Part shown: piece by piece, positions 115 through 42,110 of the stretch | Layout of the letters: the number at the start of each line of letters is the position of its first letter | Position numbering within the stretch: position 1 is the stretch's first letter | Source of the DNA: Methanobacteriota archaeon | GTDB taxonomy: Archaea; Thermoplasmatota; Poseidoniia; Poseidoniales; Thalassarchaeaceae | DNA length: 58,541 nt | Assembly: GCA_002708695.1 (NCBI GenBank) | Contig: PAOZ01000033.1 | Location: 1-58,541 of the forward strand | Direction of reading: 5' to 3' | Position numbers and translations under genes: made by a program | Notes under the pieces: model-generated | Told to the model about the DNA's origin: nothing | What the model saw: the letters and a program-made list of their open reading frames with translations, nothing else | Database searches by the model: none

Positions 115-735
115 ATGTGCTCCTCGCTCCAGCTCTCGCAGATCATCGACCACCTTACCGAGAACAAGTACAGCCGCGACGGCGCTCTGAAGCTCCTGGA
201 GAAGGAGGGACTCCTGCCGAAGAACATGATCCCCAAGGTTAAGGAAGAGAAGCCAGAGTCCCGCTTCGCCTCTCAGGCGGCGCAGGACGCTGCAGACGCT
301 ACCATGCTCGACTTCTCAGAGTGCCAGGGGACCAGCAAGAACGGCAAGATCACCGTGAAGGACGTGAAGGACTTCGCGGCTTCCAAGGTTAAGAAGGTCA
401 ACGCCAGCCCGGCTGCGGTGACCTACGCCAAGGACCACGGACTCAACCTGGAGGAAGTCACTGCCACCGGCAAAGACGGCAAGATCACCATCCAGGACGT
501 GAAGAAGTTCGCCGCTCCCGAGGAGAAGAAGGCTAAGAAACCCAAGCTCTCCCCGGGCGCCCTGAAGCTGGCCAAGCAGTGGCAGCTGGACGAGGACGAC
601 CTTGCGGAGGTGAAGCCAACTGGCTCGGGCGACACCATCAAGAAGTCCGACCTCAAGGAGCTGGTCGAGGCGGCTAAGGAGGCCTGGGCGGCTGAGGAGA
701 CGGACGAGGACTTGGGCACGGACTCTGACGCTTGA
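115..735 (+). CDS. Protein with three tandem E3-binding/PSBD-like (HeH-fold) repeats and an acidic tail
   Basis: Three repeats: ASQAAQDAAD..GTSKNGKITVKDV, ASPAAVTYAKDHGLNLEEVTATGKDGKITIQDV, LSPGALKLAK..PTGSGDTIKKSDL. They match the 2-oxoacid dehydrogenase PSBD pattern (ASP..R..A....+DL..+.GTG..GRI...DV). GC-rich codon usage. Confidence 0.7.
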   Translation: MCSSLQLSQIIDHLTENKYSRDGALKLLEKEGLLPKNMIPKVKEEKPESRFASQAAQDAADATMLDFSECQGTSKNGKITVKDVKDFAASKVKKVNASPAAVTYAKDHGLNLEEVTATGKDGKITIQDVKKFAAPEEKKAKKPKLSPGALKLAKQWQLDEDDLAEVKPTGSGDTIKKSDLKELVEAAKEAWAAEETDEDLGTDSDA

Positions 736-767
736 AGAACATCGACTAAACACCAAAAAACAAAAAA

Positions 768-795
768 CCCCTAAAAAGAGCCCTCTCGAGGGACT
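768..795. terminator. Intergenic hairpin, family B (CCCTAAAAA..GAGCCCT-CTCG-AGGGA)
   Basis: Imperfect stem-loop downstream of the 115..735 stop; related to the hairpin at 1466-1501. Confidence 0.4.
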
Positions 796-831
796 AAAAA
801 CACCGTAACGAAGAAGAGGAGACCATCACCA

Positions 832-1149
832 ATGCTATCAGACCTTCCCAAGGATCTCCATCTTCTCATCTTGGAACATGACGAAGAGAAGAAACGCCTG
901 AAAGAGGAAAACGAGAGGTTGAAGGCTCAGGTGAAGATGACCCAACTTATTCTCCTTGGACCCGAGCGCGTTGGGTGGGCGTCGTCCTTCCCTCGAGAGG
1001 TCGAGGTCCTCCCAAGTGAGATGTACAGATATTATAAAACCTTTGGGATTGTACAGTTAAAAGACAAAGTGAGGAGTTTGGGTCTCTCTGGGTATGGAAA
1101 TTCAAAGCGTGTTCTCATCAAGCGTCTTATCGAATACTACCTTGATTGA
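832..1149 (+). CDS. Hypothetical protein with N-terminal coiled coil and C-terminal Rho-N/SAP-like HeH motif
   Basis: ATG start; C-terminus IVQLKDKVRSLGLSGYGNSKRVLIKRL fits the LK...R.LGL.GY....K..LI pattern. Confidence 0.55.
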   Translation: MLSDLPKDLHLLILEHDEEKKRLKEENERLKAQVKMTQLILLGPERVGWASSFPREVEVLPSEMYRYYKTFGIVQLKDKVRSLGLSGYGNSKRVLIKRLIEYYLD

Positions 1150-1155
1150 GTATAT

Positions 1156-1192
1156 AACCAGCAGCGCTCCTAGGAGCGCATAAGTCTGGGTA
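1156..1192. repeat. Intergenic palindromic repeat, family A copy 1
   Basis: aaccagcagcgctcctaggagcgcataagtctgggta contains the perfect 16-bp palindrome GCGCTCCTAGGAGCGC; 36/37 identical to 3661-3697. Confidence 0.9.
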
Positions 1193-1210
1193 GAGAACTT
1201 AACGAAAACC

Positions 1211-1462
1211 ATGCCTACGCTGAGTCGCGGCAAGCTCATCCCCGCAGCGGTCGCGACCGAGACGTGGAAAACCCTGGTTAAGCCTTACGTCCCCCCAAAG
1301 TGCCTGGAAGTTCTAGATCATTTCACTGAAATGGCTATCGAAGCACACTTCCGAGAGCAAGTGGCAGAAGCTATTCTAGCGTCTTACGGAACAGGGTTGA
1401 CAATCACCGACGCCACTGAAAGCTGGTGGACTGAAGCCAAGCGTGTAAATACACCCCCATAA
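1211..1462 (+). CDS. Hypothetical protein
   Basis: 83-aa ATG-initiated ORF between two intergenic hairpins, co-oriented with its neighbours. Confidence 0.55.
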   Translation: MPTLSRGKLIPAAVATETWKTLVKPYVPPKCLEVLDHFTEMAIEAHFREQVAEAILASYGTGLTITDATESWWTEAKRVNTPP

Positions 1463-1465
1463 ATA

Positions 1466-1501
1466 CCCTAAAAACCATGGTGAGCCCTTTCGAGGGCTCA
1501 C
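1466..1501. terminator. Intergenic hairpin, family B (GTGAGCCCT-TTCG-AGGGCTCAC)
   Basis: Perfect 9-bp stem with a TTCG loop just after the 1462 stop. Confidence 0.55.
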
Positions 1502-1561
1502 AAACCCCGTTTCTTTTTATTATTTAAAGATAAATAATATAAAATTATAATAACGGCAGAA

Positions 1562-2185
1562 ATGAATCCAAATTTACAAATGTATGAAAGAAAAGAAGAC
1601 ATTAACACCGTTCATAGACCAGATTTTAACCCAAGAAGGTACAATTCCATACAAGATAGAGTAAATTCTGATCCAGAGTTCGAAAAAATGTACATCGATA
1701 AATTAATTTCTGAAGGATGGTATAAATTACTTGATAATCGCTCAATTTTATCAGAGGAAATGAAAGGGCGCCATTTTAAATACCGTTTAAATGGAAAAAG
1801 TTTGTCTGGGGCTAAAAAAGGGACATTTAGGAGCGGTGGAATTATCATTGGGAGATCAAATGACGATGACGACGGTAAATATATAATGTATAAGGCTTAT
1901 AACGGAAGAATATTCCCTCTTCAAATCAGTGATATATTAGAAATATATACAAAAGATCCATCTATTAAAATCCAGGGCTCAAAAAAAGAACAGAGTGTGT
2001 CTAAAACTGTATTTTTTAATAGACCAGGTGGTATAACTAAATTCCCTGTTTATTTATTGTCTGAATTATCCGGAGAACGAATTCCTATCTATTACGCAAG
2101 GGATAAATACTCTCAAGAGAGATTTGCGGCGTCTAAAAAATATCAATATGCCCTTAAAACCGGCGATTGGAATTTTTCTACTTAA
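1562..2185 (+). CDS. Hypothetical protein
   Basis: 207-aa ORF with background AT-rich codon usage; TTTAAAG motif upstream. Confidence 0.7.
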   Translation: MNPNLQMYERKEDINTVHRPDFNPRRYNSIQDRVNSDPEFEKMYIDKLISEGWYKLLDNRSILSEEMKGRHFKYRLNGKSLSGAKKGTFRSGGIIIGRSNDDDDGKYIMYKAYNGRIFPLQISDILEIYTKDPSIKIQGSKKEQSVSKTVFFNRPGGITKFPVYLLSELSGERIPIYYARDKYSQERFAASKKYQYALKTGDWNFST

Positions 2186-2283
2186 AGAAACTTTTAACTT
2201 TTGAATATAAAGACTTTTGAATATAAAGAACTTAAAGAATCCCCCCAAAGTGCCATACTGTAAAAGTCCGTTTTTGTGGGACG

Positions 2284-2667
2284 AATTACATCAAATTACA
2301 TAAATGGGGGCGGACTTTTTTTATACCCGTAGTGTGGGTATAAAACCTCTTTTTATAACTTTTTTTTACGGGTATAAAAAAAAATTACACATGGTCCGCA
2401 CCAAAAAAGTTAGCTGAAATTTTTTTTTTTTTGAATGATTTTAAAAGTTTAAAAGTTCCTATTTAAAGAAATCACAATTTCTAATATAAAGACTTTTGTG
2501 ATTTTTTTTTACCCTCCGTTTTTTTTTTAAAAATAAAAAAGTTTTTCGATGCGGACTTACGGGAATTTTTTTTTCATACCCGTGAAAAATTTTAAAAAAA
2601 AACGAATTATACCCGTGGTGTGGGTATAAGCAAAGTCCGTTTCGATTTATGTAATTTGATGTAATTT
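2284..2667. repeat. ~380-bp non-coding imperfect inverted repeat with repeated TATACCC(G) and GTCCG motifs
   Basis: Arm 2284-2343 (aattacatcaaattacataaat..cggacttt..ttatacccgtagtgtgggtataa) mirrors arm ~2607-2667. Inner pairs: tacgggtataaaaaa/ttttttcatacccgtg and gtccgca/tgcggac. Confidence 0.8.
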
Positions 2668-2750
2668 GATAAAAATTGATGTAATTTTTAAAAACGATGA
2701 AATTTACGAAAAAATATTGTATTTAAAAAAAAGAATAAGATGATTTAATA

Positions 2751-3170
2751 ATGGAGGAACACAATAAAAGACCTACCTGGGAAGAATACTTTAAATCCCT
2801 GGTAAAATTAACAGCCAGTCGTTCACCATGTGAAAGACTGCAAGTTGGTTGCATTTTTATAAAAGATAATAGAATTATTGCACAAGGTTATAATGGCTAT
2901 ATACCAGGATGTGATCATAAGTCAGTTATAAAAGATAATCATAATGTAGCTATAATACACGCAGAACAGAATACAATAACAGATTGTGCTAAAAGAGGTG
3001 TAAGTTCTCATGGATGTTGTGCTTATGTAACACATAGACCCTGTTATAACTGTATGAAATTAATGGTTTCATCTGGTATAAAAGAGGTAAAATATATAAA
3101 TGATTATAAAAATGATGATCTTGTTACTGATTTGTCTAATGAATGTGGTGTAAGGGTTTTAAAGATTTAA
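2751..3170 (+). CDS. dCMP deaminase
   Basis: Motifs RSPCERLQVGC, IIAQGYNG, HAEQN and PCYNC (zinc deaminase HAE/PCxxC). Confidence 0.93.
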   Translation: MEEHNKRPTWEEYFKSLVKLTASRSPCERLQVGCIFIKDNRIIAQGYNGYIPGCDHKSVIKDNHNVAIIHAEQNTITDCAKRGVSSHGCCAYVTHRPCYNCMKLMVSSGIKEVKYINDYKNDDLVTDLSNECGVRVLKI

Positions 3171-3226
3171 AATTTGCTAAAAAATATTATAGTTAAAAAA
3201 TAATTATATGTGTAGGATATATTACT

Positions 3227-3649
3227 ATGGACGAAAACAATTGGGACGGAATAACCATAACAGTTATGACTCCAAACCTTATTAATAAATTTGTAAGCAT
3301 CCCTGGTAAAACGTGGGAAGAAAAACTTATGTCTTGTATAAATTGTGAATGTTGTCCAAGACATATGATTAATAGACCCACTGAGCTTAAACCATGGATT
3401 GAATTGCCTTGGAGTGGAAACGAAGAAAAGTATGAAATGGATGGTTGTGTTTGTCCTTGTAGACATAATGCTAGATTCATTTGTCGTCAAGTAGAAGAAC
3501 CGGTTTCATTGTGTCCCCAAGGAAGTCCAAAGGAGGTTGATGATTTTACAACCGTTCTTACACCAGTCGAGAGAAATGCATGGCTTGACAGATTGGATGT
3601 CCAGGAAATGGAAGAGGCAATGGAAGTCCTTACAACATCTGAAAGTTAG
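3227..3649 (+). CDS. Cys/His-rich hypothetical protein, paralog of 7434..7889
   Basis: CECCPRH and CVCPCRHNARFICR motifs shared with 7434..7889. Confidence 0.7.
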   Translation: MDENNWDGITITVMTPNLINKFVSIPGKTWEEKLMSCINCECCPRHMINRPTELKPWIELPWSGNEEKYEMDGCVCPCRHNARFICRQVEEPVSLCPQGSPKEVDDFTTVLTPVERNAWLDRLDVQEMEEAMEVLTTSES

Positions 3650-3660
3650 AAATAATATAA

Positions 3661-3697
3661 AACCAGCAGCGCTCCTAGGAGCGCATAAGCCTGGGTA
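3661..3697. repeat. Intergenic palindromic repeat, family A copy 2
   Basis: aaccagcagcgctcctaggagcgcataagcctgggta; one mismatch to copy 1. Confidence 0.9.
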
Positions 3698-3710
3698 AGT
3701 AAATTGAGTA

Positions 3711-4205
3711 ATGGAACAATCAGAGCTATTATTGCTCGAAGGTGAACTTTTAGCGTGGAATGTCGATGGAAGCGGTGACGCGATGGTCGAAGGAGGATCA
3801 TGGATCGGTTACGCAGAGAAAGTTACCGGTCGGAAGCGCGGACGCTGCTCATACTCCGACTGCGTAAACGATTCAGAGGTTGGTGGTCACATCTGGATTT
3901 CCCGTGTTGGTTGTGTTATAGCTCCAATATGTAAGTCGTGCAACTGGCCCGAAAACAAAAAAAGGTGGCAGGGGTCTGGTTCGAAGATGCGCAGTAATAT
4001 TGTAGTTTCGCGGACGGAGTTGACAGACGGTATGAAGATGGCTCCCCGGAGGAGATTGCAGGACCCTCTCTGGAATGACGGTGACCACTATATTGATACT
4101 TCATTACGTATGTGTGTATCGTGTAAAAAAGACATTACATCCAGACCCAGTAATTATACACAGTGTTATAATTGCTGGAAGATAGATAACAAATATAATT
4201 ACTAA
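3711..4205 (+). CDS. Putative zinc-binding hypothetical protein
   Basis: CSYSDC..GGHIW..PICKSCN, plus C-terminal CVSC..QCYNC. Confidence 0.65.
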   Translation: MEQSELLLLEGELLAWNVDGSGDAMVEGGSWIGYAEKVTGRKRGRCSYSDCVNDSEVGGHIWISRVGCVIAPICKSCNWPENKKRWQGSGSKMRSNIVVSRTELTDGMKMAPRRRLQDPLWNDGDHYIDTSLRMCVSCKKDITSRPSNYTQCYNCWKIDNKYNY

Positions 4206-4221
4206 TTAAATATAATAGATA

Positions 4222-4257
4222 AACCAGTAAACTCTTCGGAGTTCTTAAGGCTGAGTA
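4222..4257. repeat. Intergenic hairpin repeat, family A copy 3 (diverged, compensatory changes)
   Basis: aaccagtaaactcttcggagttcttaaggctgagta aligns to copies 1 and 2; inner stem ACTC-TTCG-GAGT. Confidence 0.7.
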
Positions 4258-4260
4258 AAG

Positions 4261-5397
4261 ATGGTTTATCTATTATTTTCTTTAACAGCGTCATATGTTT
4301 TACAATTGAGAAAACCATCTGAATATAGTATTGCAAAAATAAGTACTATGTTAGAACGCACCAAGGGTCAAAAAACAATACCCATAAAAGCTACATTTAA
4401 TCGAGACTATGTTGTTAATGACGAAACAATGAGATGGTATCTTTCTTCTATAGGGTCTAAACGTCTTTTAGAAAAAGATGAAGAAATACAATTAGCATTG
4501 GCTGTAAAACATCTAATAGAATGGAATAATGCCAGGGAAGAGCTCAAAATAAATCTAGGACGTGAACCCACTAAAAAAGAATGGGCTATGAGTTTAGGTT
4601 TTGACGGAACTAATAAAAGTCTTAATAAATTTGAAAAAAGACTGGAACTATTTGAACAATGTAAAGAATGTATGATAACAAGCAATCTTAGGCTTGTAGT
4701 TTCAATAGCAAAAAAATATACTAATAAAGGAGTTAATATACAGGATTTGATTCAAGAAGGTTCAATGGGTTTAATTAAAGCAGTTGAAAAGTTTGATATA
4801 GAGCGTAATTGTCGTTTTTCTACTTATGCACACCATTGGATTAAACAGGCTATAACAAGGGGTGTTGCTAGATATTCTAGACCAATTAGAATTCCTATAT
4901 ATATGTCAGATTGTGCAAATAGTATTAAAAGAGCACGTAAAATTTTTTACTTAGCTAATGGTTACTCACCTACGGATAATGAACTCGCTGGTATATTAGG
5001 AATATCGGAGTCAAAATTTCGAAAAGCCTTTGATTCTAATAGACTCTTGTTATCTTTAGATGCACCATATTATCAAAACATATTAACAAATGAGGAAAAA
5101 ATTTGGATTGATATAATTCAAGACAAAAAAAGTGTTCCAGAAGACTCTTTTCAAGATAGTCAACTAAATCAAGAACTTTATAAAATTATAACAAATGTTC
5201 TTAATACACAAGAACGAGAAATATTATTTTTAAAATATGGTTTGATGGGTAGAGATACTCTTACCATGGATCAAATTAGCAAAATTTATCAGTGTCCAAA
5301 AGATACGATACAGAAGATACATTTAAGATCTTTAAGAAGACTTAGAAATACACCCCAAAAAAGTAAATTGTTTTTACCCGAATATAAGTTTGATTAA
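4261..5397 (+). CDS. Sigma-70 family RNA polymerase sigma factor, plastid/cyanobacterial type, with putative bipartite plastid-targeting leader
   Basis: Region 1.2 MRWYLSSIGSKRLLEKDEEIQLA; region 2 SNLRLVVSIAKKY..QDLIQEGSMGLIKAVEKFD..RFSTYAHHWIKQAI; region 3 PTDNELAGILGIS..SLDAP; region 4 LNTQEREILFLKYGL; cyanobacterial/plastid-type LGREPTKKEWA insert. Confidence 0.93.
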   Translation: MVYLLFSLTASYVLQLRKPSEYSIAKISTMLERTKGQKTIPIKATFNRDYVVNDETMRWYLSSIGSKRLLEKDEEIQLALAVKHLIEWNNAREELKINLGREPTKKEWAMSLGFDGTNKSLNKFEKRLELFEQCKECMITSNLRLVVSIAKKYTNKGVNIQDLIQEGSMGLIKAVEKFDIERNCRFSTYAHHWIKQAITRGVARYSRPIRIPIYMSDCANSIKRARKIFYLANGYSPTDNELAGILGISESKFRKAFDSNRLLLSLDAPYYQNILTNEEKIWIDIIQDKKSVPEDSFQDSQLNQELYKIITNVLNTQEREILFLKYGLMGRDTLTMDQISKIYQCPKDTIQKIHLRSLRRLRNTPQKSKLFLPEYKFD

Positions 5398-5407
5398 GTA
5401 AAATATA

Positions 5408-5435
5408 ATCTCTTAGGAGTTTTAAGAACGAGGTA
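5408..5435. repeat. Family A hairpin repeat copy 4 (degenerate)
   Basis: ctcttaggag core followed by ttttaagaacgaggta, 8 nt before the ATG at 5444. Confidence 0.55.
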
Positions 5436-5443
5436 AAAGAAAT

Positions 5444-5713
5444 ATGTATTCTCAACTCGTAGATGAACCCGAAATTCTACCAGCGTCTGATGCTCGACTA
5501 CAGATGTATATTAGATATCTTCTAGCAACTGAAGACTTAAAGATGGCTAATCAGCTAGCATCTCATAAGAGAACCCTTGATCTAGATGAGGCCGCCCTTG
5601 TTTTGGCAGCTTCACAAAAAATCCCTGAACTTAGATCTAACACAAGAGCGCTTCATAAGAAACTTACTAAACTCTTTATGCAAGAGGTTCTTGATATTAC
5701 TCCGCCAAATTAA
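5444..5713 (+). CDS. Hypothetical protein
   Basis: 89-aa helical-looking ATG ORF within the co-oriented array. Confidence 0.55.
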   Translation: MYSQLVDEPEILPASDARLQMYIRYLLATEDLKMANQLASHKRTLDLDEAALVLAASQKIPELRSNTRALHKKLTKLFMQEVLDITPPN

Positions 5714-5770
5714 ATTTATAGTAAGAATAGATTAATTATTATGTGTGTTCTCTATAAAGGATAAAGTAAT

Positions 5771-6265
5771 ATGTCTGTTCCACGTTTAGCTGACAAAGCA
5801 TCTTTAACTCTTCTATATAACAATAATAATGAGGTAGACTTTACACCATATGTTTCGTGTTGTAAAAATATACAACGAGTATTTACCAAATACATTAAAG
5901 AAAAGAAAGCAGTAATTTATATTCAAAAGATTTTTAGAGGATTTATTTGGAGAGATGTCTTATTTGGTTATTTTCCCATGTCGGATGATGTAGATTTTGT
6001 ATCAAGAATAGTAAAAGTATTGAGACCTGAATGGTCTCTTCCAGCATGGAGAGTTTACATTGAAGCAGGAAGAATCCCCCCTTGGAGATGTTCCTGGTCA
6101 AGTCTTACACCCGATAGAAGCCCTTGGTATGAATGGGGTAGATTTTATGATAGGTGGAGTGTAGCGTTTGTTTTTTATAAAAGACCTTATTTGGCCAGAA
6201 GAAAATTATATTTTAGAACTGCTATTAGAAATTTCTGGATAGAAAGGAAAATATATGTACTTTAA
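5771..6265 (+). CDS. IQ-motif protein, paralog of 6303..6818
   Basis: AVIYIQKIFRGFIWR fits IQxxxRGxxxR; N-terminus SVPRLADKASLTLLYN is shared with the next ORF. Confidence 0.7.
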   Translation: MSVPRLADKASLTLLYNNNNEVDFTPYVSCCKNIQRVFTKYIKEKKAVIYIQKIFRGFIWRDVLFGYFPMSDDVDFVSRIVKVLRPEWSLPAWRVYIEAGRIPPWRCSWSSLTPDRSPWYEWGRFYDRWSVAFVFYKRPYLARRKLYFRTAIRNFWIERKIYVL

Positions 6266-6267
6266 AT

Positions 6268-6296
6268 AAACTCTTAGGAGTTCATAAAATAAGGTA
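6268..6296. repeat. Family A hairpin repeat copy 5 (degenerate)
   Basis: aaactcttaggagttcataaaataaggta, 6 nt before the ATG at 6303. Confidence 0.55.
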
Positions 6297-6302
6297 AAGA
6301 AA

Positions 6303-6818
6303 ATGCATATTCCTACCCTGGCAGATAAAGCAGCTCTTTCTCTATTCTATAATAGCAGTAGTGTAATAGATTTTTCACCTTTTGATGATTTTGCAACTAT
6401 TATACAGAAATTTTATAAATTATACATTCTAAAGGTTCGAGCAAGTGTTTATATTCAAAAGATTTATAGGGGATATTCGTGGAGAATTTGTATATATGAT
6501 TTCAGAGGATCTCATAGGGATTACATTTGTAGAGTAGTAGAAAAACTAAGACCTGAATGGCCAATAAGAGGGTGGAATTCTTTTGTAGATCGTGATGGTA
6601 TCAGAGTTTGTCGTAGATATTTACCTGAAGGAGTTGTTCCTTGGTCTCAGTGGGCTAATTTTTATGATACCTGGAATACTGCATTTTGTTATCATCTCAG
6701 ACCTAATTTATCCAAGAGAAGAATGAATTTTCATGCAACCCTGTTTCACACGCGAGAGAAGTATAGATATAGCAGAGCTCCCGACAGATATTATACCCCA
6801 GTTCCGTGGATGGCATAA
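6303..6818 (+). CDS. IQ-motif protein, paralog of 5771..6265
   Basis: ASVYIQKIYRGYSWR IQ motif; LRPEW, PW..W..FYD.W..AF and RP.L..R shared with the upstream ORF. Confidence 0.7.
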   Translation: MHIPTLADKAALSLFYNSSSVIDFSPFDDFATIIQKFYKLYILKVRASVYIQKIYRGYSWRICIYDFRGSHRDYICRVVEKLRPEWPIRGWNSFVDRDGIRVCRRYLPEGVVPWSQWANFYDTWNTAFCYHLRPNLSKRRMNFHATLFHTREKYRYSRAPDRYYTPVPWMA

Positions 6819-6831
6819 TTGATTAGAATAT

Positions 6832-6872
6832 TTAATTACGACTCCTAGGAGTTTAAAGGAGGGCGTAATTAA
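6832..6872. repeat. Family A hairpin repeat copy 6
   Basis: Outer stem ttaattacg/cgtaattaa encloses the inner palindrome actcctaggagt with a 3' bulge. Confidence 0.65.
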
Positions 6873-6889
6873 GTATTACATTAAAAAGA

Positions 6890-7093
6890 ATGATTGTAAA
6901 TATCATAGGAATTGGTTCATTTCTGTATCTTATTGGTTTTTATTTTGGTTGTACACCGACTACCAGAACTAAAATACAACCGAATTTTTTTAAGACGGGG
7001 GGTTGTCCTTATAATCAAACTACAAAAGATCCAATGGTATTAAAATTAAGAAAGTGTAATATTAGTGTTCGTCGTAGAATTAATGATGAATAA
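6890..7093 (+). CDS. Small hypothetical protein with hydrophobic N-terminus
   Basis: 67-aa ATG ORF following hairpin copy 6. Confidence 0.45.
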   Translation: MIVNIIGIGSFLYLIGFYFGCTPTTRTKIQPNFFKTGGCPYNQTTKDPMVLKLRKCNISVRRRINDE

Positions 7094-7101
7094 AAGGGGA
7101 C

Positions 7102-7174
7102 TAGGGCACATGGGGATCGAACCCATGACCACAAGATTAAAAGTCTTGCGCTCTGCCTACTGAGCTAGTGCCCC
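7102..7174 (-). tRNA. trnK: tRNA-Lys (anticodon UUU)
   Basis: Minus strand folds as GGGGCAC TA GCTC AGTAGGCA GAGC G CAAGA CT-TTT-AA TCTTG TGGTC ATGGG TTCGATC CCCAT GTGCCCT A; CCA not encoded. Confidence 0.96.
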
Positions 7175-7204
7175 TTTTATTTATCTTAAATCTTATATCA
7201 GTAT

Positions 7205-7433: not shown

Positions 7434-7889
7434 TTATTTTCTTTTATTTTTACCCTGAAATGCATCTACTATTTTTCTTAGTTCATCTCTTGCTTCCTTA
7501 GTAAATTTAAATTCTCCCTCATCATCTTCTACAATAAAATCATGAATTGAATCATCGCTATCAGCCTCTGATTCTTCAGAAGTTTCTTCATCTGTATCTG
7601 TATCTATTACGTCTACTTCATTTACACGATCCCATTCTCTACAAATGTGTCTAGCTATATGTCTACAAGGACAATCACAATTACAACCCCAGTTATTATA
7701 TTCTTCTGGTTTTGGAGACGCGGGTAAATCACACTCTAGAGTGGGGAAATTAAATTTATGTCTTTTACAACACTTACAATTAACTAATTCGGCGGGTAGT
7801 GTTTCTAGATCTTTACATGTGTTCATTTTTTTATCAAAATACGTTTCGGCGTCCATATTTTTAAGTTTCAGATAATCTTTGAAATTCAT
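7434..7889 (-). CDS. Cys/His-rich hypothetical protein with acidic tract, paralog of 3227..3649
   Basis: CKCCKRH and CDCPCRHIARHICR motifs. Confidence 0.7.
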   Translation of the reverse strand: MNFKDYLKLKNMDAETYFDKKMNTCKDLETLPAELVNCKCCKRHKFNFPTLECDLPASPKPEEYNNWGCNCDCPCRHIARHICREWDRVNEVDVIDTDTDEETSEESEADSDDSIHDFIVEDDEGEFKFTKEARDELRKIVDAFQGKNKRK

Positions 7890-7926: not shown

Positions 7927-8547
7927 CTATTCCGAATCTACAATAGAACACATAATTTCCTTTTCAATTGGTTCTTCTTCTAGGTCGGAATCGGAAGATA
8001 CTTCAAAATTTCTCCAATCCATTCCGTGTCTAAAACAGTAGTAATTATTTGCCCCATCTGGTTTTGTCGTTCCAGGATGCTTACACGGATCTCCCGATTT
8101 GTTCATTCCACAACACTTATTAACAGTCTTTTCCTTACTTAGATTTTTATACCAAGGTTCTCCTTGATTACTAGCTACAGTAGTATTTTTTTTGGGTTCC
8201 TTTTTGGTTGTTAGCTTATTAGCCTTTAGGTATGTATTTATATCACTCTTAGTAATCTTACCATCCTTTAGTGTCCCGATGTCAAAATCGTCAAGTGTCA
8301 AATTGTTTTCTTGTGCATATTCTGCGGCAATTTTAGTAGCAAATCTCTTAACAGGGGGACAACCAGGGGAATTGTCAGATGTTGTTTTCTTTACATTGGT
8401 TTTCTTTACACTTACATTCACATTGGTATCATTGATTAGTTTATGGGCTATTTCAATAAAAGCATCATTAAAAAGTCCTAGCATTTTACCCATAGCTTCA
8501 TCATTTAGATTGTATTCAGTTTGAAATTCTTTGAATCTAGCCTCCAT
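7927..8547 (-). CDS. Hypothetical protein with one PSBD/HeH-like repeat and a C-terminal zinc-finger-like motif
   Basis: FATKIAAEYAQENNLTLDDFDIGTLKDGKITKSDI resembles the 115..735 repeats; CCGMNKSGDPC..YCFRH. Start moved from TTG 8556 to ATG 8547. Confidence 0.65.
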   Translation of the reverse strand: MEARFKEFQTEYNLNDEAMGKMLGLFNDAFIEIAHKLINDTNVNVSVKKTNVKKTTSDNSPGCPPVKRFATKIAAEYAQENNLTLDDFDIGTLKDGKITKSDINTYLKANKLTTKKEPKKNTTVASNQGEPWYKNLSKEKTVNKCCGMNKSGDPCKHPGTTKPDGANNYYCFRHGMDWRNFEVSSDSDLEEEPIEKEIMCSIVDSE

Positions 8548-8665
8548 TGTGCCCAATATATTACTTTATTAATTATTTTTTTAAGTTAAATCTTTTTTTG
8601 TAAAATTTATAATTCTTTTTTCTCTAAATAGAGATTAAGAATTATAAATAAATTTGAATTTAGAC

Positions 8666-41375: not shown

Positions 41376-42110
41376 ATGGACAAAATCAATGAATTGAAAT
41401 CAATTCCCATGCATGAACAGCGTTCTGATGCGTGGTTCAAACAAAGAGAAAACAAATTGACATCAAGTGACGCAGGAACAGTTCTAGGATTGAATCCTTA
41501 TCAAAAACCAAAAGAAGTACTTTTTAAGAAATGCGGTTATGATCCAAAGCCATTTGTTGGTAATATTGCTACTCGTCACGGTCAAAAGTATGAAGACGAG
41601 GCTATTGAAAAGTATTGTAAACTAACTGGTCAAAAGAGTTACGAATTTGGTCTTATTGCACACGAGGATGTTCATAAATCCGATGAATATCCATGGCTTG
41701 CTGGTTCGCCAGACGGTATTTCTATTAATGTAACAGACCCCGATGCAAAGCCTATTCTATTGGAAGTTAAGTGTCCTTATAAGCGAAAGATTATCCCAGG
41801 AAAGATTCCAGAGTATTATTATCCTCAAGTTCAGTTGAATATGTTCATTTGCGGACTAGAGGTTTCTGATTTTATTGAATATTTCCCCCCGAAAACTATG
41901 AGTATTGTAAGAACTTACATTAATCATAAGTGGCTTAAGAAGAATTTGCCTATTCTGGACAAGTTTTGGAAGGATGTAGTTCATTATCGCGAAGTGGGAA
42001 TTAAATGTCATCCCGAATTTAAACACCCTAAGAGAGTTCTAGATCTTACTACAAAAGACAATTCAGACGTTTCACCTGTTAATCTTACTGAATGCCTAAT
42101 AGTTGATTAA
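41376..42110 (+). CDS. YqaJ-like viral recombinase/lambda-type exonuclease
   Basis: QRSDAWFKQR..LTSSD, HGQKYE, AGSPDG, LLEVKCP, YYPQVQLNM. Confidence 0.93.
   Translation: MDKINELKSIPMHEQRSDAWFKQRENKLTSSDAGTVLGLNPYQKPKEVLFKKCGYDPKPFVGNIATRHGQKYEDEAIEKYCKLTGQKSYEFGLIAHEDVHKSDEYPWLAGSPDGISINVTDPDAKPILLEVKCPYKRKIIPGKIPEYYYPQVQLNMFICGLEVSDFIEYFPPKTMSIVRTYINHKWLKKNLPILDKFWKDVVHYREVGIKCHPEFKHPKRVLDLTTKDNSDVSPVNLTECLIVD

Follow-up and report, generated by a model that had tools for sequence, protein, structure and literature searches.

The stretch of DNA analysed here, called the window, is the entire contig PAOZ01000033.1 (58,541 nucleotides; C33 below). It is a giant-virus contig mis-binned in a metagenome-assembled genome (MAG) of an archaeon (GCA_002708695.1; 57 contigs, 1.77 Mb), the bin in which a second virus-like contig, C8, is also found. 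Near its first end the window carries a row of co-oriented accessory genes with six copies of a hairpin-forming repeat of 34-40 nt in the spacers between them. This element and its role at the gene junctions are the subject of the present work. The regulatory signals of the abundant uncultured giant viruses of ocean algae are almost unknown. The element, about 35 nt long, is clearly under selection, its structure is proven by covariation, it has an invariant recognition sequence and it marks exactly the genes that vary between close strains.

A gene array punctuated by a hairpin element

All six copies proposed in an initial annotation of the window were verified. Each is located on the + strand and is flanked by a stop codon on its 5' side and by the next ATG on its 3' side. 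The core CTCYTMGGAG gives nine matches at the six sites, as compared to 0.17 +/- 0.45 expected from 100 shuffles. The distance from the element to the ATG, first given as 3-18 nt, proved slightly wider, at about 3-24 nt. Refined extents of the copies, scored with a covariance model (R1) built from 18 copies, are listed together with the array genes.

120 to 2728, no strand: stretch 100% identical to C8:1-2609
832 to 7093, + strand: co-oriented accessory gene array, with the following genes and copies
832 to 1149, + strand: array gene, SAP-domain protein
1158 to 1192, + strand: copy 1, type A', 44.9 bits; between 832-1149 and 1211-1462, within the stretch common to C8
1211 to 1462, + strand: array gene
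1562 to 2185, + strand: array gene
2751 to 3170, + strand: array gene, dCMP deaminase
3227 to 3649, + strand: array gene, of a Cys-rich family
3663 to 3697, + strand: copy 2, type A', 50.6 bits; between 3227-3649 and 3711-4205
3711 to 4205, + strand: array gene
4222 to 4257, + strand: copy 3, type A, 50.6 bits; 3 nt before the ATG of the sigma-70 gene
4261 to 5397, + strand: array gene, sigma-70
5406 to 5436, + strand: copy 4, type B, 43.9 bits; between the sigma gene and 5444-5713
5444 to 5713, + strand: array gene
5745 to 5770, + strand: possible decayed copy, CTCTATAAAGGATAAAGTAAT-ATG, upstream of 5771-6265; read directly from the sequence
5771 to 6265, + strand: array gene, paralog of 6303-6818
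6267 to 6297, + strand: copy 5, type B, 55.3 bits; between the paralogs 5771-6265 and 6303-6818
6303 to 6818, + strand: array gene, paralog of 5771-6265
6832 to 6872, + strand: copy 6, type C, 54.1 bits, fold z = -4.3; before 6890-7093
6890 to 7093, + strand: array gene

The outer stem that had been claimed for the best copies is real in those at 1156, 3661, 4222 and 6832 (copies 1, 2, 3 and 6) and absent or very weak in those at 5408 and 6268. In copy 1 it is formed by CCAG (1158-1161) and CTGG (1186-1189), enclosing the inner stem GCGCTCC (1164-1170)/GGAGCGC (1173-1179) and a 3' bulge, ATAAGT. Copies 1 and 2 show 95% identity over 42 nt and are alike in this 42-nt element only, their flanks being different. 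Copy 3 (AACCAGU-A-AACUC-UUCG-GAGUU-CUUAAG-GCUGAGU) represents type A, the commonest form among relatives. Copy 4 consists of an inner hairpin, CUC-UUAG-GAG, followed by UAAG and GGUAA, and has no outer stem. Copy 6 has a 9-bp outer stem (TTAATTACG/CGTAATTAA), the inner stem ACTCC/GGAGT and an 11-nt 3' bulge. The candidate decayed copy retains the TAAAGG..TAAAG tail, has lost the hairpin and is not matched by the model. Two further distinct copies are found in C8, in addition to the duplicate of copy 1 (at 1156) inside the shared 2.6 kb.

Co-orientation of the flanked genes, their uneven composition (57% G+C in the first kb, then 29-39%) and the presence of a sigma factor were borne out. Their description as unrelated holds except for two pairs of paralogs, 5771-6265 with 6303-6818 and 3227-3649 with 7434-7889. 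The sigma-70 gene is complete, comprising regions 1.2, 2, 3 and 4, and encodes a plastid-type factor, which is unusual for a virus of eukaryotes. An identical array including the sigma factor was independently assembled from several Tara Oceans samples, so the array is neither an assembly artefact nor a chimera; it is present in identical form in the DNA runs ERR594284 and ERR594304. Exact look-ups of the array proteins led to DNA metagenome contigs only, mostly from Tara Oceans.

Covariation, distribution and strain differences of the element

The type A consensus is 5'-(A)YCAGU-A-AACUC-UUCG-GAGUU-CUUAAG-GCUGRG(U)-3'. It folds into a 5-bp inner stem, usually closed by a cUUCGg tetraloop, and an outer stem of 5-7 bp, with a single unpaired A in the 5' strand and a bulge of six bases in the 3' strand. 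The alignment of 33 distinct type A copies has 18 invariant columns, of which 12 are consecutive (GGAGUUCUUAAG) and take in the unpaired CUUAAG; the whole run GGAGTTCTTAAG belongs to the invariant columns, as does the innermost pair of the outer stem, U.G. The other types retain the CUC-N4-GAG core, the UAAG box and GUA at a fixed distance. Type A' has a GC-rich inner stem, in which GCGCUCC/GGAGCGC is replaced by GCACUCC/GGAGUGC in one relative, type B is devoid of the outer stem and type C has one of 9 bp that is rich in A and U.

Both stems are maintained by compensatory changes. Across the 18 aligned copies, 98.9% of the inner helix is paired, with AU, GU, CG and GC at one pair and AU and GC at another, in agreement with what the initial annotation had asserted for this stem. 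In the outer helix of the 33 type A copies three pairs vary as AU22/GC8/GU1, CG15/UA5/UG2/AU1 and CG26/AU1/UA1/UG1; the outer stems seen include CUCAG/CUGAG, CCCAG/CUGGG, ACAG/CUGU, CCGG/CCGG, AAUCCAG/CUGGAUU and CAUGG/CCAGG. Covariation is significant, the type A score lying above all 500 shuffles and far above every slid control. Read on the sense strand, the pairs comprise 62 G.U as against 5 A.C (21 as against 5 without the invariant pair), and 10 as against 2 in the types other than A. This excess shows that the fold is selected on the sense strand of the flanking genes and, together with the UUCG loop, points to RNA as the folded molecule.

A two-tier bulged hairpin was also observed outside the array, at 8605-8649 on the - strand (fold z = -3.9), after the stop of the gene for the LHC-like protein and before 7927-8547. 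Its inner stem is UCUCU-AUUU-AGAGA and its outer stem consists of 12 bp of A and U; it may be a distant relative of the element.

Within the 1.77-Mb bin R1 finds nine matches, all in C33:1-7 kb and C8:1-5 kb, and none in the remaining 51 kb of the window. The element is thus restricted to 5-7 kb at the two contig ends, as assessed in the window's own bin and in relatives' loci of +/-10 kb. Among 36 IMG/VR loci with a related family-B DNA polymerase (PolB), it is found only where PolB is at least 85% identical, and on one mosaic contig. Lineage L042, with a PolB identity of 82%, has six copies, and the element-bearing relatives span PolB identities of 82-96%. In every case the relatives have it past the 3' end of PolB, near a contig end and in the orientation of the array genes. 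A scan of metagenome contigs for an invariant 19-mer yielded 44 loci with 93 model matches. Pooled with those of the window, C8 and the relatives' loci, they give 77 distinct contexts and 69 distinct 55-mers. The 19-mer match in L057/L079 is due to chance: it lies inside a coding region of a GC-rich contig that, judged from its set of open reading frames (ORFs) and their products, looks like an RNA phage. The covariance model can serve to locate such arrays and genome ends in metagenomes.

Other searches were negative. A peptide scan with the sigma factor and an exact 27-mer of copies 1 and 2 gave no match among viral contigs, where the PolB scan did find relatives. A phage database returned chance matches only, of tRNA-like and sigma-factor-gene kind. 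At the gathering threshold Rfam finds nothing but tRNA-Lys in the window; a permissive scan of 700-7200 left the elements unmatched, apart from a sub-threshold, chance-level match to PK-HAV (30.9 of 50 bits) on the opposite strand.

The order of shared genes is collinear among the relatives: dCMP deaminase, the 3227 family, a variable part, the 6303 family, 6890 and tRNA-Lys, followed by the gene for the LHC-like protein and PolB. The shuffling of gene order that had been envisaged is therefore not seen for shared genes, whereas units do differ in presence and absence. In the variable part the differences amount to entire units, each made up of a gene and an element; strains with 94-96% identical PolB differ by such units carrying the sigma gene, genes for 164-, 138- and 89-aa proteins, or a duplicated paralog. 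Strains of the L007 type have 3227, a type A copy and 6303, and L006 has a 5444 homolog in addition. Relative to these, the window has gained or kept 3711-4205, the sigma factor and the duplicated 6303 paralog; in L116 another gene, of 138 aa and with its own element, stands ahead of sigma. The sigma-70 gene is missing in L006, L007 and L046 (PolB 94-96% identical) and present in other strains; it is a module gained or lost recently. The gene families joined at an element differ between lineages, the pairs observed being F2-F3, F2-F1, F0-F1, F0-F25, F0-F3, F4-F15, F4-F0, F4-F3 and F4-F29.

The mosaic contig, L016 (IMGVR_UViG_3300012954_002155), is 95-100% identical to the window from 5821 to the 3' edge of the element at 6832-6872 and about 70% identical past this edge. 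Its PolB is 73% identical, its homologs of 7434 and 7927 are 42-48%, its 6303-family genes 93% and its LHC-like gene 97%. Either divergent co-occurring viruses recombined, with the joint at the element, or the assembler switched at the shared repeat and produced a chimera.

In L009, L034 and L066 two type A copies stand 139 nt apart around a mini-ORF of less than 40 codons (starting MMIAAAA), which represents either a decayed module with surviving junction signals or a very small gene.

The element as a proposed signal at gene junctions

The element has ties to the end of the upstream gene as well as to the start of the downstream gene, and because of both we prefer a combined stop-start junction signal, which we regard, tentatively, as the likeliest mechanism. 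We infer that the repeat is a cis-acting gene-junction signal working as RNA on the sense strand. Each unit comprises the upstream stop codon, often TAGA, a short A/T-rich spacer, the two-stem bulged hairpin with the invariant GGAGUUCUUAAG and the invariant G.U pair, and a short A-rich leader followed by the next ATG. The hairpin would mark the point of termination or processing of the upstream transcript, as a sequence-specific version of the 'hairpin rule' of giant viruses, and the invariant 3' half with the A-rich tail would be the start region of the next gene, either promoter-proximal sequence or 5' leader. Any gene placed between two copies would thereby receive both its end and its beginning from one compact module. 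The shared structured promoter or terminator with plug-in genes, one of the two options first suggested for the array, is in essence supported by the sense-strand structure at the junctions, the gain and loss of gene plus element and the variety of genes joined.

On the upstream side, an ORF on the same strand ends just before the element in 68 of the 77 contexts, mostly 11-24 nt from the outer stem (-8 to 42 nt with two exceptions; full range about -8 to 45 nt). The stop codons there are TAG in 27/60 and TAGA in 25/60, across several unrelated gene families, as compared to TAA in 80% and TAGA in 2/60 elsewhere in C33 and C8. This enrichment indicates that the conserved module reaches as far back as the stop of the upstream gene. 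At the end of the C8 array stands a related hairpin (CUUUUAUGACUCC-UA-GGAGUCAUAAAAG, flanked by CCUUAAGG; C8 4930-4949), between the convergent genes C8 4435-4899 and 4960-5472, where no ORF lies behind it. It measures 11-13 bp, is present in C8 and twelve relatives, and its changes are compensatory (GAC/GUC, UAC/GUA, AAC/GUU, CCCC/GGGG). Moreover, hairpins of a second family follow stop codons in the terminal repeat.

778 to 795, + strand: second-family hairpin, GAGCCCT-CTCG-AGGGACT, after the stop of 115-735
1480 to 1501, + strand: second-family hairpin, GTGAGCCCT-TTCG-AGGGCTCAC, after the stop of 1211-1462; z = -4.2

These are GC-rich and kept in eight relatives. Between the hairpin at 1480-1501 and the ATG of 1562-2185 lies an ordinary AT-rich promoter-like spacer, so that here a hairpin precedes a separate promoter. 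A role at the upstream end is thus suggested by the stop-codon context, the family member in a convergent spacer, the hairpins ahead of separate promoters and the precedent of 3' ends defined by hairpins in Mimiviridae, pithovirus and Marseilleviridae (Priet et al. 2015, PMC4402537; list in PMC8557863) and in Sputnik (PMC4402537).

Both second-family hairpins (765-795 and 1465-1501) have loops of the UUCG/CUCG type and are preceded by CCCTAAAAA. This includes CCCTAAA, the telomere unit of plants and algae.

The 3'-end signals of Mimiviridae were reportedly described as the 'hairpin rule' by Byrne et al. in 2009. The present element resembles them as a hairpin-forming palindrome right after the stop in a giant-virus spacer, kept up by compensatory changes and proposed to define mRNA 3' ends. 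Mimivirus has long, AT-rich hairpins (stems of 13 bp or more) that show no sequence conservation and follow nearly all genes, whereas the element is short (5 + 5-7 bp) and bulged, has 12 invariant bases and occupies about a dozen junctions beside the genome ends, 2-30 nt before the next ATG. Position after stop codons and upkeep of structure are therefore common to both; genome-wide use without sequence conservation is not found here. Under that rule, transcripts undergo cleavage and polyadenylation at the hairpin through an RNase III-like enzyme and a viral poly(A) polymerase, neither of which turned up in the incomplete bin. The spacer of the convergent genes 30972-31484 and 31574-31837 contains, at 31485-31573, a near-perfect palindrome of A and T only, about 47 nt long, which resembles a hairpin-rule terminator.

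On the downstream side, 71 of the 77 contexts have an ORF of 40 aa or more whose ATG comes 2-30 nt past the outer stem. The element fills positions -45 to -8, a region in which the virus's other genes have AT-rich boxes. Similar boxes are also found just 5' of the element (-15 to -6), as though it had been inserted between promoter and ATG. One copy of L042 (15287-15341) is located in a divergent spacer, where a DNA methyltransferase gene lies inverted beside it and the gene immediately upstream is not co-oriented. Of the immediate-early genes of medusavirus, most of which have no known function, 95% are preceded at 40-70 bp by a palindromic, promoter-like motif of 24 nt (PMC8557863). A role at the downstream start is suggested by the closeness of the ATG, the occupation of the promoter region, the divergent case and this precedent.

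The same evidence is what the main rival explanation draws on. It holds that the element is a class-specific promoter and/or structured 5' leader only, without any role in ending the upstream transcript. It would mark one temporal or regulatory class, such as immediate-early genes near the genome ends, and as the first ~35-45 nt of each mRNA would be bound by a viral or host factor, for which the invariant unpaired bases would be well suited. We consider this possible, though rather unlikely. The hairpin of the convergent spacer, conserved with compensatory changes and without an ORF behind it, speaks against it, as does the extension of the module to the upstream stop codon. Furthermore, the first genes of the arrays (2751-3170, 3227-3649, C8 2637-3491 and C8 4046-4375) have no element in front of them. 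Covariation through G.U pairs would be unexpected for a site in double-stranded DNA, although it would suit a 5' leader. The medusavirus motif is likewise a conserved palindrome ahead of a defined and mostly uncharacterized gene subset in a nucleocytoplasmic large DNA virus. That motif is conserved as sequence and occurs in divergent but never in convergent spacers (PMC8557863), whereas the stems of the element covary with G.U, the upstream stop is linked to it and one family member stands in a convergent spacer.

Two readings of short sequence motifs were rejected. GGAG/GAGG as a Shine-Dalgarno box shows inconsistent spacing to the ATG, and type A has no such box near it. G|GUAAG as a 5' splice site is contradicted by the ATG that comes within a few bases. 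Termination-reinitiation of the kind mediated by termination upstream ribosomal binding sites (TURBS) was also considered; UGGGU is not conserved, CUGAGU and CCGGGU occurring as variants.

Several observations weigh against a stop-start signal, or limit the case for it. No such hairpin lies behind the array genes 2751-3170, 5444-5713 and 6890-7093, and the element is thus not obligatory for 3'-end formation. A general hairpin rule does not apply in this virus: outside the array, the 3' flanks of genes fold weakly (mean z only -0.45), for which reason such a rule was rejected as the whole explanation; many convergent genes of the virus abut or overlap. The bin yielded no RNase III and no RNA polymerase or poly(A) polymerase of viral type, which is uninformative as its viral part is incomplete. 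In this compact array the spacings from stop to element and from element to ATG are both short, so position alone does not distinguish the role of terminator from that of 5' leader or promoter. Counting which of the two adjoining gene families, upstream or downstream, the element accompanies does not separate these roles either, because nearly every junction of two array genes has an element. Many of the 77 contexts are orthologous, and the counts therefore exaggerate the number of independent events. Finally, G.T wobble can also form in folded single-stranded DNA, so that RNA is favoured, short of proof.

The cassette-like behaviour of the array would, under the stop-start signal, follow from recombination between near-identical direct repeats at both genome ends, which may add, delete, duplicate and re-pair gene modules without a dedicated site-specific system. 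A YqaJ-type exonuclease encoded at 41376-42110 may help in this process. Newly acquired genes would then be expressed at once, which would explain why accessory genes gather at the genome termini. Here, GGAGUUCUUAAG in its bulged hairpin would offer a handle on the protein that reads the element. The logic of such an array is known from phage 'morons', extra genes each of which brings its own start and stop signals and forms a complete expression unit, and from non-segmented negative-strand RNA viruses, whose short gene-end and gene-start signals punctuate a row of co-oriented genes. The likeness is one of logic only, as genome types, polymerases and signals differ.

The initial annotation had also likened the array to a cassette array with attC-like sites. 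By this account the element, as folded single-stranded DNA, would be cut and rejoined by a dedicated recombinase, and genes would move together with their sites. The attC sites of integrons are imperfect palindromes of 57-141 nt with RYYYAAC and GTTRRRY at their ends, conserved in structure and not in sequence. There is indeed a resemblance in the co-oriented array of small genes with one imperfect, bulged, strand-specific hairpin each, in strain differences that are exact units of gene plus element, in the various gene pairs joined at it, in the similarity breakpoint with L016 at its edge and in the two A' copies that are alike in nothing but the element. However, the attC reading fails at each of its testable defining features: boxes, length, conservation pattern and linked integrase. 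No R/L boxes are present, neither the 5' end YCAGTAAAC nor the 3' part GTTCTTAAGG fitting RYYYAAC/GTTRRRY. With 34-40 nt the element has about half the minimum length of attC, and it is strongly conserved in sequence including the loops (18 invariant columns, a 12-nt run). The window and C8 contain no tyrosine recombinase, in line with the initial view that no integrase is visible in the window. PF00589 matches in the bin are confined to C2 (three copies) and C28, both free of the element. Nor are attI or Pc found, the virus is one of eukaryotes and the shared genes remain collinear. Homologous or single-strand-annealing recombination between near-identical repeats of ~35-45 nt gives the same pattern, and the breakpoint of L016 could stem from a chimeric assembly switching at the shared repeat. 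We regard an attC-like site as improbable.

In an equally improbable variant, the element would serve as the joint in a gene-capture system peculiar to giant viruses, by which a viral factor would insert, excise and swap units of gene plus element at the termini. If so, the folded strand would be recognised as DNA during replication, or as RNA; host-derived genes such as that of the plastid-type sigma factor would become expressible on landing between two copies, and an integron-like device would have been invented independently in viruses of eukaryotes.

The weakest candidate, which we consider very unlikely, is a selfish miniature repeat similar to miniature inverted-repeat transposable elements or repetitive extragenic palindromes, spread in intergenic DNA without any role in expression: short, repeated and hairpin-forming with flanks that differ between copies, as here, it would not account for matches in the window and C8 that all share the orientation of the array genes and occur near contig ends, either between a stop and the next ATG or behind the last stop, for the many AT-rich spacers free of a copy in the other ~70 kb of C33 and C8, for flanks in which no target-site duplications are evident by eye (no formal test was made), or for upkeep at orthologous junctions with compensatory changes down to 82% PolB identity.

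The virus and the ends of its genome

The viral nature of C33 is evident from its genes. It encodes PolB, a fused type II topoisomerase, a helicase, an AEP primase, FEN1/XPG and the YqaJ exonuclease; an A32-type packaging ATPase, the LHC-like protein and a capsid paralog of 3,027 aa are also encoded. The G+C content is 33%, as compared to ~40% for the bulk of the bin. The closest PolB from a cultured virus is that of Heterosigma akashiwo virus 01 (37% identity), and uncultured metagenomic PolBs are found in hundreds at 70-96% identity. The virus is an uncultured marine giant virus of the Nucleocytoviricota.

C8 has a G+C content of 35.5% and carries a ubiquitin gene and a tRNA. The stretch shared by the two contigs is probably a terminal inverted repeat of ~2.7 kb of a linear genome. 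It is GC-rich (57% in its first kb) and encodes an E3-binding-repeat protein, the SAP-domain protein and two small ORFs. C33 and C8 each read inward from a G-rich end that is also found at the ends of relatives' contigs, and together they appear to represent both termini of a single linear genome bounded by such a repeat. In the window the G-rich terminal sequence occupies 1-60 (TTGGGGGGAGGGAGGGGGAAA...AAAATTGC[A/T]AAAAT), and it is likewise seen at the ends of L082, L094, L099 and L066. Its recurrence suggests that the contigs nearly reach the physical genome end.

The inner edge of the shared stretch is formed by a big AT-rich imperfect palindrome at 2284-2666, which is 65% self-complementary and contains inverted copies of TATACCCGTGGTGTGGGTATA. 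Many relatives' contigs stop at a palindrome of this type or at the G-rich terminus, and many begin or stop exactly in the TATACCCGTGGTGTGGGTATA motif. The palindrome could be an origin, a resolution site or a mere assembly breakpoint. At C8:3500-4045 about 500 nt without an ORF and with raised G+C content, portions of which also occur at the contig starts of the relatives L063 and L084, have no match in Rfam; this region may be a pseudogene or a non-coding RNA of no known kind. The contig C2 (19.4 kb, 33% G+C), on which three tyrosine-recombinase genes stand 6.6 kb apart, two with equal scores and the third nearly equal, looks like a tandem assembly of a ~6.6-kb element, such as a plasmid or small virus.

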